Source: a virus
Length of the DNA: 64,000 nt
Virus record (IMG/VR): IMGVR_UViG_3300035698_012408
Reading direction: 5' to 3' (one strand)
This document shows, piece by piece, positions 5,368 through 11,157 of the stretch. Each line of letters starts with the position of its first letter. Position 1 is the first letter of the stretch. Both the position numbers and the translations under genes were made by a program. The notes beneath the pieces are model-generated. The model had not been told where the DNA came from. It saw only the letters and a program-made list of their open reading frames with translations, and made no database searches.

Positions 5368-8300
5368 TTATTCCTGACAATCAATGCACTTGTTGGCGTT
5401 AAAGGTGGCCGGATCGGTGGTCGGACATTCCAGCGTGGCCTCGGCAGTGTCCACAGCCTGTCGCTCCTCGGGCGGCGGGGCTTCATTGCTGACCATCAGC
5501 ATCTCACCATCTAGGGTCGCTGTCAACTCGCCAGTCACGGCGTAAGGGGCGTTACCGACCGTGAGGCTTTCGCTGCTGTGCAAATCTTCTTCGTCCGAGA
5601 TGCCACAATGGTTAAACTCCAGGCGGAACTGAGCATTGACAGACGACCCGGGTTCGACGCTTTCAAAGTACGCGGTAAACTGCGGCCACGAGCCGCCCAT
5701 TGTCGCGCGTTCTGTCGTGCTGGCTCGCCGACCAGCTTTCTTCTTCGTTCCAGTGATAAACGTGAACCCAGGAACCTCTACACCAACCCCGCCAGTCGGG
5801 GACGTGGAGAAGTCCGCGGTCAGCGTCAGGTCTGTCACGCAATCGTCCGTCTGGTTGCAGAACTGAATCACAACGTCAAGGAACGGACAGATCTGCGGTT
5901 GCAGGAAGATCCTGAGCGGTCGACGATGGAAACACGCCAGTGACGCGAGCCAGCGGATACGGTTCTCGTGGTACAGGTCACGAATGCCTTCAAAATTCTC
6001 ACCAAGGGCATGGTAACGATCACGCGTGTCGTTCAGGTAATCTGCCACCTCGACGTAGTCAGGGCAGTCGCAACACGGCATGCAGTCGTTTCCGATTTGC
6101 AGGTGGGCATACGCGGGATCATCATCGGGCGGCCAGCCGAGGGCAGTCTTGGACTGCCCAGCGTCCGCGTCAGGAAGTCCAAGCTCTGGGACGTTTCCAG
6201 GCGACACGGCAACGGTCGGCAAGCCATACCCGTTTTCTATGACCGTGGGCTGGCGTACCCAGTAGCAATCTGTTGCCGATAGGTAGAAATCGCCTTCGGT
6301 ATTCGGCCCGATCCCGTTGACCGTCCGAATGACAAGTGGCTCCGTCTCGCAGCCGGGGTATATTCCGAGGCCAGCCCCTGCCGTCGCATTAAATACGAAC
6401 GGCGTAGTACGGCGCCTGCCGTCAGGGGCTTCAGTGGCTCCAACATCGATGAACATGTTGTAACCGGCCTCGAATTCGGCGGGGGAACGCCGAAAATTAT
6501 CAAGGATAACCGTGAGGGATCGCACACGCTTCGGCAGCTTCATGACAGTTCGCTGTATGAGCTGTGCGTCCTCAGGGTAGATCTCGGTCGGGTAGTTTGT
6601 AGGTTCTGGCGAATCGTTCGCGGTCCACGCCGTGTGGGTCACCAGGAAACACGTCTCGTCTTTGTCCGTCCGCCACTCGTAGATCCACAGGCGGTCGCCC
6701 CACGCCTTCGTGCTGAACGTGGTCACGGTGTCTCGCGTGGAATCAAATACGATACGGCCGTCATTATCTGCGATCACGATGTCCGCAGCATGCACTGCCG
6801 TCGGTGCATAGCCGGCGGTGGTCTCGAACTCTACCACGGCGGACGAACTGTCCTCTGAAGGGCTGTCTACGGGCTCGCATCCGAGACCCGACACCCAGTA
6901 AACGTGGTACGGCGGCGTGAACGGGATGCCGCCATCGTATTCGTTCGTGTCGTCGAACGCCAACCAGAAGTCTGCAAACAGATAACGAATATCCTCGCTC
7001 GGTCGAAACAGCGGGTAGTCGATACCGGACTGCGGCTGCACAACACCGATGCCCTGTCGGCCGTGTGCGTCATAGGCAAACGGCTGACATTCTGAATCGG
7101 CAGGCAGCGAGGCTGACGACAGCGACGACGATGACGACGAAGGTTGCGGCGCAGCTTCGGACGATGACAGCGACGATGAGGGCTGTGGTGCGGCTTCGGA
7201 CGATGACGGCGACGACGAAGACGAAGAAGACTCTACAGGTTGCGGCGCAGCTGCCGACGATGATGGCGACGACGAAGACGAAGACGAAGACGAAGACGAA
7301 GACGAAGACGAAGGCTGCGGCGCGGCTTCAGACGATGATGGCGACGACGAAGACGAAGATTGCGGCGCGGCTTCAGACGATGATGGCGACGACGACGACG
7401 ACGACGACGATGATGGCGACGACGAAGACGAAAGTTGCGGCGCGGCTTCAGATGACGACACCGAAGAAGATGACGAGGGTTGTGGTGCGGCTTCAGATGA
7501 CGACACCGAAGAAGATGACTCCACGGGTTGCGGAGCTGCTTCTGACGACGATGACAAGGATGAAGACGACGAAGACGACGGACAGTCCGTGGCGTAGATG
7601 TCATAGAGTATAAACTCGCCCCACGTGAACCAAAGAGTAGTGCCGCCGCTTATAGGTGTTGCTTCATCATACATCGAATTGTAAGCGATATGACCGCTCA
7701 TCGTGGTGCATTGACCAAGCACATCAGACAACGCCCAGGCCACGCCCATCCCATCAATATCCGAACAATGATACAGGTAAACTGTGCCGAACCAAGGATT
7801 AGAATATGTCCAATATGGGTACCCCGCGTAAACACCAGTGGGTTCAGCTGACTCAACCACGTTGGCAAAGTGCAACTCTACACAGCCACCCGGAGGAGGA
7901 GCCACGCTATCTGACGCAGAGTCGGATAGCGACGAGGAGGACAACAAGGATGCCGATAACGAGGGTTGCGGGGCAGCCTCGGATGATGACGACGATGACG
8001 ACGATGACGACGAAGACGACTCCACAGACTGTGAAGCTGACTCAGAGGCTGATGGCGGCGGCGCTATAGAGTCACTCGCCGACGCTGACAGCGACGCGGA
8101 AGACGATGGTGCCGCTTCACTAGCGAGGGAACATTCCTCGGTAACAGCAACAGCCCAACCAGACCATGAATACAGCCCCGTCCAGTCGCCGATAGGGTCC
8201 CACGGATCATAAACATCTTGGGTCGCCACAGGTGGACCGGCAGAGTGGCAGATCCCAACCCCTGGCGAGAGCACCCAACTCGGCCCACCGCCGTCGAAAG

Positions 8301-11157: not shown

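Follow-up and report, generated by a model that had tools for sequence, protein, structure and literature searches.

A baseplate-cluster protein of a predicted jumbo phage extended by two orphan families of small beta-domain modules on serine tethers

IMG/VR virus record IMGVR_UViG_3300035698_012408 supplies the 64,000 nucleotides (nt) analyzed here, called the window throughout. It contains an open reading frame (ORF), 5368..11157, that encodes a protein of 1929 amino acids (aa) in which about 1350 residues of small domains and serine-rich linkers precede a conserved core. The extension is built of five A modules followed by five B modules, two families of compact domains that found no relatives in the collections searched. 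We infer a binding function, together with a place in the virion, outward exposure, disulfide bonds, a ligand class and a role in adsorption. The protein may serve as a baseplate-anchored, flexible, polyvalent adhesin, a reading to which we give a probability of roughly 0.55.

Much of this organization had been proposed in a sequence-only reading, whose account of the ORF is accurate, coordinates included (1929 aa, minus strand, intact). Its five type-A and five type-B modules were found, and all ten are recovered by leave-one-out profiles. Its poly-Ser N-terminus corresponds to Met followed by 11 Ser, its linker of Ser and SSSEAAPQP lies at aa 1196-1353, and the two core motifs that it quoted are located at aa 1378-1389 (GIDYPLFRPSED) and aa 1612-1626 (TVNGIGPNTEGDFYL). 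The ATG at 11157 is the sole start that leaves module A1 whole; the gene call on the European Nucleotide Archive (ENA) contig starts at M54, yields 1876 aa and would halve this module.

A modules are 79-86 aa long and share 28-48% mutual identity. Their alignment contains thirteen invariant columns (P C Q W Y W G G P P G Y C); cysteines stand at both ends, one within predicted strand 1 and one just past predicted strand 8. Pairwise blastp comparisons of A1-A4 give expectation values (E) of 1e-18 to 1e-26. B modules are longer (107-118 aa, 32-42% mutual identity) and have seventeen invariant columns, among them four Cys, a PTG motif and three Trp. Leave-one-out hidden Markov models (HMMs) retrieve A1-A4 and B1-B5 at E 1e-18 to 1e-30 (7e-19 to 4e-30 for the B modules) and A5 at E 2e-5, and an HMM scan of the six-frame translation of the window returns exactly five A and five B modules, all within this ORF. 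The copies are diverged except at scaffold positions, as had been proposed: C, W, Y, G and P account for 12/13 of the invariant positions in A and 13/17 in B. When A and B are aligned separately, conservation is higher in predicted strands than in loops (mean BLOSUM62 score 2.2-2.7 vs 0.9-1.3).

Three possible kinships were tested and rejected. A is not detectably related to B (hhalign probability 1.2%), profile comparison does not link either type to the core's Cys-bracketed N-domain as a source (probability <1%), and the modules do not match the 67-aa repeats of the downstream gene. A modules and the core begin alike, with a Ser run followed by (A)LP.C.(Q/P)F, and this junction motif is the sole feature that the modules share with the core N-domain. 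No A or B modules occur in the rest of the window or in the related loci L001, L004, L005 and L006. The only repeats that touch the ORF are its own linkers and modules, and no template/variable repeat pair of the kind found in diversity-generating retroelements is present in the 64-kb window, where no reverse-transcriptase search was made. Hypervariation of this type was dropped as an explanation for lack of such a pair.

Both module types fold as independent units in AlphaFold2 models, for which the input alignment comprised only the five paralogous copies of each type. The A3 model is a compact all-beta domain of eight strands with a predicted local distance difference test score (pLDDT) of 92.7 and a predicted template modeling score (pTM) of 0.83, and B2 is a compact all-beta domain of nine strands (pLDDT 91.1, pTM 0.86). 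The models are thus discrete domains and not ordinary shaft repeats. Each of the ten modules contains an even number of cysteines (2, 2, 2, 2, 4 in A1-A5 and 4, 6, 4, 4, 4 in B1-B5), extra cysteines are paired, and the linkers contain none. The position of the terminal cysteines, in or beside the first and last strands, fits a predicted disulfide that ties the module ends together, and at least one disulfide probably forms in every domain after the virion leaves the cell.

Both families are orphans. Single modules match nothing in Pfam below E 0.08, and PDB profile searches with A, B and the core find nothing below E 0.4, the value at which a search with the modules listed a 'carbohydrate-binding protein'. 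Searches of Pfam, PHROGs and NCBIfam with the whole protein, the modules, the core and eight neighbors match only Baseplate_J, GIY-YIG and sheath families, each in a neighbor. No relative was detected with the A and B profiles in 5.8 billion protein clusters, with the B profile in IMG/VR, with aa 15-1195 in JGI metagenome contigs and GTDB genomes, or by tblastn and megablast for the modules in GenBank phages, and phmmer with aa 1-1200 against 1.84 billion representatives gave 0 matches. The exact 1929-aa and 1876-aa products were themselves not retrieved, though the 1876-aa call exists on L013, an apparent indexing gap; nor was the 409-aa A1-A5 product, cut by the end of contig L009, retrieved from the large protein libraries. 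The modules are therefore under-sampled, because assembly-breaking linkers flank them and products cut at contig ends seem to be missing from protein libraries.

The C-terminal 576 residues belong to a family with at least 172 homologues (E<=1e-3), which are typically 490-630 aa long; the best 120 of these, all with E<=4e-77 and coverage >=84%, were examined further. Family members are 34-65% identical to the core over at least 84% of their length, and the family alignment contains 28 invariant columns, an invariant Cys pattern and the motifs GRQGIGV.QPQSG.DYPL, INGV.P..GDF and GNDC.PCCDC. Conservation is highest in the first 40 residues (0.66) and lowest at the C-terminus (0.26-0.43), a gradient that reads as the usual polarity of an anchored N-terminal end and a variable distal end. 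The core has no match in Pfam, PHROGs or NCBIfam, PDB profile matches have E>=0.48, none of the family is annotated, and tblastn detects no core homologue in GenBank phages. One orthologue, in IMGVR_UViG_3300023296_001269, belongs to the family.

The extension is a lineage-specific gain. The syntenic orthologues, 589 aa long in L001 (46% identity) and 570 aa long in L004 (63%), lack it and start a few residues before the conserved Cys, in keeping with the earlier proposal that the N-terminal part of ~1350 aa is an add-on. Among the 120 best relatives the N-terminal extension has a median of 3 aa, reaches 30 aa or more in 15/120 and 100 aa or more in 8/120, and is at most 366 aa long. Unlike these other family members, the window protein has 1353 extra residues, 3.7 times as many as the next longest extension, and is the sole known carrier of A and B modules. 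The longer extensions of relatives are mutually unrelated and include simple repeats, a domain with a Thr/Ser linker, a Gly_rich_2 domain and Laminin_G_3, a ConA-like lectin domain detected in one relative at E 1e-7, above Pfam's cut-off. Many members (P0011, P0049, P0059, the L001 orthologue and others) begin M(P)SSSSSS..C, with a stub before the conserved Cys, and the window protein keeps such a poly-Ser stub at its extreme N-terminus (MSSSSSSSSSSSAGALPEC vs MPSSSSSSSSAGAGPCEPF in P0011). The N-terminus of the core family is a recurrent site of accretion, with the window protein as the extreme case. The layout had been called non-standard for a fiber; it is extreme in size, but N-terminal accretion as such recurs in the family.

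Gene order places the core in a conserved slot. A Baseplate_J wedge gene is followed by a cluster of unannotated genes: genes of ~535, 210, 640 and 320 aa, the core, and then genes of ~550, 255 and 340 aa; the ORF lies downstream of the wedge gene and is transcribed in the same direction as the tail sheath gene. The full wedge-to-core order is kept in L001 (IMG/VR, 46-63% protein identity) and L005 (Logan), and L004 and L006 preserve it over the portion of the cluster that surrounds the core slot. Across these relatives the core slot is conserved, and the extension is absent from the syntenic orthologues. By its gene content, the source element is an uncultured jumbo phage (215 kb) with a contractile tail, whose putative baseplate/fiber cluster includes the gene.

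The composition of the modules suggests exposed binding domains. Trp makes up ~5% of module residues vs 1.3% in the other ORFs of the window, Trp, Tyr and Phe together 15.5% vs 7.1%, and Lys and Arg together 1-3%, with a net charge of -8 to -23 for each module. Ser-rich linkers contribute ~335 residues to the extension. The A-B linker is 72% Ser, encoded mainly by AGC codons with an (AGC)15 run at 9754-9798, and the long linker is 59% Ser with eight SSS[E/A]AAPQ units, of which the [E/A]AAPQ part occurs twice more in the earlier linkers. Ser-rich linkers of 12-21 aa (>=58% Ser) are also present in five other ORFs of the window (3706-5367, 12862-14796, 36790-38034, 39145-40209 and 40361-40858), and core proteins of relatives contain similar internal linkers, so the tether material is native to the clade.

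Lysine content varies across the window. Proteins of the baseplate/fiber cluster (1913-18731) are acidic and Lys-poor (about 1.2-2.8% K). A balanced composition (about 4-8% K) is seen in the polymerase subunits and in most of the remaining upstream ORFs that are not tail genes (45699-61870). This suggests that adaptation to the environment, which may be saline, is confined to the extracellular parts.

In the proposed mechanism, the C-terminal 576 residues would form a conserved particle-anchoring core, encoded a few genes downstream of the Baseplate_J wedge, whose free N-terminus grew by ~1350 aa in this lineage through the gain of five A and five B domains. The array may hang from the baseplate as a long flexible tentacle with a contour length that we estimate to be of the order of 100 nm. 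Its ten Trp/Tyr-rich acidic domains could act through numerous weak contacts. The probable partners are surface glycans, capsule or exopolysaccharide, either on the host or on particles. Capture radius and avidity would both be raised for a reversible first attachment, before conserved machinery commits to infection.

Several observations weigh against an adhesive role. Foldseek searches with the A and B models against PDB, and with B also against BFVD, return nothing below E 1; the best hits have E 1.2-1.6 overall and 1.5-1.6 in PDB, with a template modeling score (TM) <=0.44. Lectin and carbohydrate-binding module (CBM) folds are few in the PDB lists and appear only at E 1.9-6 and TM<0.3; immunoglobulin-like (Ig), FN3 and BACON folds have no Foldseek entry at E<1 in PDB or BFVD and no Pfam match. 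By sequence, the modules match no lectin, CBM or Ig family in Pfam, PHROGs, NCBIfam or PDB. The core lacks a characterized relative, so only gene order places the protein in the virion. The sequence-only reading took the diverged copies as candidates for different binding specificities; between the two assemblies that cover it, which come from different samples, the A array shows 100% identity and gives no sign of population-level diversification. The B array (7446-9769) is supported by a single short-read MEGAHIT assembly.

The missing lectin, CBM and Ig signatures would also be expected if the array sat on the virion without an external ligand. It could then set distances as a spacer or ruler, surround the baseplate with an acidic steric shield, or dock onto other virion parts, for example to keep fibers retracted; whiskers of phage T4 hold its fibers in the retracted state. 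The acidic, Lys-poor composition is common to proteins of the virion cluster and may be an environmental adaptation, and relatives P0034, P0032 and P0095 have simple-repeat N-terminal extensions without a recognizable binding domain. Ten autonomous domains of two types on ~335 disordered residues would, however, be a costly spacer. Ligand binding is favored by the fourfold enrichment in Trp and by the lectin-like domain that one relative has in this position, and the closest relatives have no extension, so the array is not needed for assembly. A ligand-free role is unlikely on balance.

Another possible origin of the module array is import as a finished unit. The donor would be an unsampled gene of a cell or virus, for example one for a host surface adhesin or a polysaccharide-binding protein with polyserine linkers, and the array might keep a donor function such as binding the substrate on which the host lives. 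Copies within a type are only 28-48% identical, yet orthologues 63% identical in the core lack the array, which fits an old array acquired late. G+C content at third codon positions (GC3) is 0.56-0.57 in the modules, against 0.675 in the core and 0.65 in reference genes, and codon-usage correlation is 0.64-0.65 for the modules vs 0.92. In some Gammaproteobacteria, polyserine linkers are a typical feature of secreted carbohydrate-active proteins (PMC2386152). However, module GC3 and codon usage lie at the low end but still inside the range of the window's genes, the linker style (SSSEAAPQP, SESS..PPQP) is native to the clade's fiber proteins, and no donor was found in the 1.84 billion representatives, 5.8 billion clusters, GTDB species genomes, JGI contigs, IMG/VR or GenBank phages. 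We regard import as distinctly unlikely; it bears on origin only and does not conflict with the adhesin mechanism.

One end of a 215,361-bp MEGAHIT contig (ENA ERZ27316532 k141_715151) makes up the window, and L013 equals window 13713..1 at 100% identity, with an identical ORF. The A array and the junction between linker and core are confirmed by further contigs from Logan and JGI (Table 1). The core gene is also present in L003 (ENA, ERZ27315525), a contig from a further assembly that begins ~244 nt upstream of this gene. Short contigs from other samples end at 11107 (L011) and 11153 (L012), and L009 ends inside the A-B linker at 9770. Each of the contigs aligned in Table 1, like L011 and L012, has an end inside a Ser-coding run (11107-11153, 9770 or 7278-7445); L007 and L008 have their other end at 4403, in a Ser-rich stretch of ORF 3706-5367.

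An alternative reading is a partial assembly artifact, in which the B array or the number of linker repeats would result from a false join, an expansion or a collapse at Ser-coding stretches. The window comes from the end of a contig assembled from a short-read metagenome, at least seven other contigs (Logan, ENA, JGI) stop inside Ser-coding runs, no independent contig covers 7446-9769, and scans of the protein libraries and JGI contigs did not find the module region. Still, both flanks are confirmed at 100% identity, from the upstream gene through the start and A1-A5 and from the linker through the core in frame, and the reading frame is open over 5.8 kb. The B copies differ by 58-68% at the protein level on a coherent scaffold with a pLDDT of 91, which is not expected from a chimera of unrelated DNA; a chimera is unlikely because the frame is open and five diverged copies share a confidently folding scaffold. 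Exact runs of Ser codons are at most ~60 nt, below the final k of 141, and only the linker repeat number is really at risk. That number is uncertain because the long linker consists of imperfect 45/75/120-nt tandem repeats. A partial artifact in the extension is very unlikely.

Accessory binding domains on phage structural proteins are already well established as a general principle, and this finding is an extreme variant of binding-type domains added to adsorption proteins, drawn from two orphan families. Phage T4 Hoc carries Pfam-detectable Ig-like domains on the capsid, is dispensable for assembly, and has been proposed to mediate weak adhesion to glycans, the bacteriophage-adherence-to-mucus idea. 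The present array resembles Hoc in its tandem small beta domains, here with inferred virion display, but it has no Ig signature in Pfam or Foldseek, a baseplate-cluster carrier, and long disordered linkers between domains. Serine-rich repeat adhesins of Gram-positive bacteria share with it only the composition of their Ser-rich spacers; of their hallmarks, which also include long glycosylated repeat regions of the SAS[E/V] type and genes for accessory Sec and glycosyltransferases, an LPXTG motif and an N-terminal signal-like hydrophobic segment are absent from the sequence.

The closest known parallel is the CBMs of lactococcal and streptococcal siphophages, which occur in evolved Dit, Tal, the neck passage structure and TpeX (PMC6669499). 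Lactococcal phage virions are decorated by such modules, two of which bind the host (PMC6669499). As in the window protein, these are small accessory domains on conserved proteins of the adsorption apparatus, patchy among relatives and present in multiple copies, and they are thought to add avidity for polysaccharide. Siphophage CBMs differ in that they have recognizable CBM or BppA-like folds, are single or few insertions, and serve phages of Gram-positive hosts, whereas here ten domains of two orphan families, with a predicted binding role, stand in tandem on Ser tethers and form the N-terminal part of a baseplate-cluster protein in a myophage. In Saccharophagus and Cellvibrio, the connection between CBMs and catalytic domains is a polyserine linker (PMC2386152). 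In the polysaccharide-degrading proteins of Saccharophagus degradans and Cellvibrio japonicus (PMC2386152), Ser runs likewise tether small, autonomous, aromatic-rich domains; those proteins are, however, secreted enzymes with known CBM and glycoside hydrolase families, and the window protein, a structural protein of a phage, has neither a catalytic domain nor a CAZy-type module.

If the adhesin reading is true, two small disulfide-stapled beta domains, confidently predicted and without relatives, would join the known "bricks" of phage adhesion, and a conserved baseplate protein that accepts anything between 0 and 1350 additional N-terminal residues would be a natural scaffold for display or host-range engineering in large phages. 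It would also follow that modular virion proteins rich in Ser linkers fragment in short-read assemblies and are under-counted in metagenomic surveys, because assemblies break at each linker and the cut products are absent from the protein collections searched. A broader claim is tentative, and we consider it somewhat doubtful: A and B may be two previously unseen folds or families that originated or became fixed in this phage lineage alone, and which together with the Ser tethers would form a new adsorption organelle, a polyvalent tentacle of ~100 nm, and the family N-terminus may be a docking site for new binding domains in jumbo phages. Such arrays could be widespread yet missed, because short-read assemblers break at Ser-coding linkers and the cut products appear to be missing from libraries.

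The core is also related to neighboring genes, to a lesser extent than the sequence-only reading had supposed. Its proposed likeness to nearby paralogues is strong with the family of ORF 11177-12145 (hhalign 98.7%, E about 4e-16, ~155 columns, core residues 159-364), with which it shares the TVNGIGP..GDF and C.PCC.C motifs, but weak with 2955-3713 (41%) and negligible with 3706-5367 (3%). An N-terminal RYPF.D domain is common to the families of 11177-12145, 3706-5367 and 2955-3713 (hhalign 96%, 92% and 20%). The suggested equivalence of the core's GIDYPL with this motif is in register with the 11177 family and falls short of significance (E 0.21, probability 0.3%). The labels "fiber" and "adaptor" likewise found no backing from a curated family or solved structure in Pfam, PHROGs, NCBIfam or PDB.

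Table 1. Features of the window and contigs that overlap the ORF
Feature	Window coordinates	Strand	Residues (aa)	Remarks
Whole ORF	5368..11157	-	1-1929	Intact, ATG start; N-terminal stub, 5 A modules, 5 B modules, long linker, conserved core
N-terminal stub MSSSSSSSSSSSAG	11116..11157	-	1-14	M + 11 Ser + AG; like short poly-Ser starts of core-family members, e.g. P0011 MPSSSSSSSSAGAGPC
A-module array	9796..11115	-		5 modules, eight predicted beta strands each
A1	10873-11115	-	15-95	
A2	10627-10869	-	97-177	
A3	10360-10605	-	185-266	
A4	10087-10323	-	279-357	
A5	9796-10053	-	369-454	
A-B linker	9721..9795	-	455-479	Ser, 25 aa
B-module array	7573..9720	-		5 modules, nine predicted strands each; Ser-rich linkers included
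B1	9367-9720	-	480-597	
B2	8944-9279	-	627-738	
B3	8503-8853	-	769-885	
B4	8122-8442	-	906-1012	
B5	7573-7902	-	1086-1195	
Linkers between B modules	9280-9366, 8854-8943, 8443-8502, 7903-8121	-		20-73 aa
Long linker	7099..7572	-	1196-1353	Ser/Pro, 158 aa
Conserved core	5371..7098	-	1354-1929	576 aa
Core N-domain	6877-7089	-		Cys-bracketed, GRQGIGV.QPQSG.DYPL
Core INGIGP..GDF motif	6280-6324	-		
Core C.PCC.C cluster	6055-6090	-		C-terminus more variable
Upstream paralogue	11177..12145	-		316-322 aa; shares central domain and C.PCC.C motif with core
Downstream paralogues 3706-5367, 2955-3713, 1913-2941	1913..5367	-		N-terminal RYPF.D domain, ING..P..GN motif
Wedge gene	17076..18731	-		Baseplate_J / phrog_6; heads conserved cluster
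Tail sheath gene	32867-35812			phrog_279, E 2e-7
L009 (Logan SRR8526178, 30.7-kb contig)	22127..9770			Upstream genes, start, A1-A5; 100% identity
L002 (Logan)	98..7299			Core and part of long linker, in frame; 100% identity
L007 (JGI)	4403..7445			Core and part of long linker, in frame; 100% identity
L008 (JGI)	4403..7278			Core and part of long linker, in frame; 100% identity

Further features of the cluster concern its neighbors. The next downstream gene, 1-1866 on the minus strand, runs off the start of the window and contains at least six tandem Cys repeats of ~67 aa (IPPP.VPCP...; a 201-nt DNA period at 527-1303), followed by collagen-like GPTG triplets. It is a putative second modular, Cys-rich, fiber-like protein, unrelated to A and B. 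Between two fiber-cluster genes lies a GIY-YIG endonuclease ORF (12127-12858, minus strand), which is probably a mobile homing endonuclease insertion because it is absent from the same position in L001, L004 and L005. In L006, a 749-aa protein with a Glyco_transf_9 domain (9923-10972 of that locus) is encoded directly downstream of the fiber-cluster genes and could bear on glycosylation of virion proteins or modification of the host surface.

Elsewhere in the window, a 1495-aa ORF (57383-61870, minus strand) joins RNA polymerase beta (Rpb2_6) with the N-terminal part of beta-prime (Rpb1_1/2), and a separate 633-aa ORF (54241-56142, minus strand) contains Rpb1_5; the polymerase is multisubunit. 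Its nearest counterparts in GenBank phages are those of Salmonella phage Arash and Vibrio phages D181, D148 and D69, at only ~31% identity. Internal repeats occur at 40364-40538, 40527-41269, 44257-44396 and 57077-57211, and comprise an 18-nt tandem array of seven copies, a 300-nt two-copy repeat, and Pro/Gly-rich repeats of 18-21 nt and 48 nt within ORFs.

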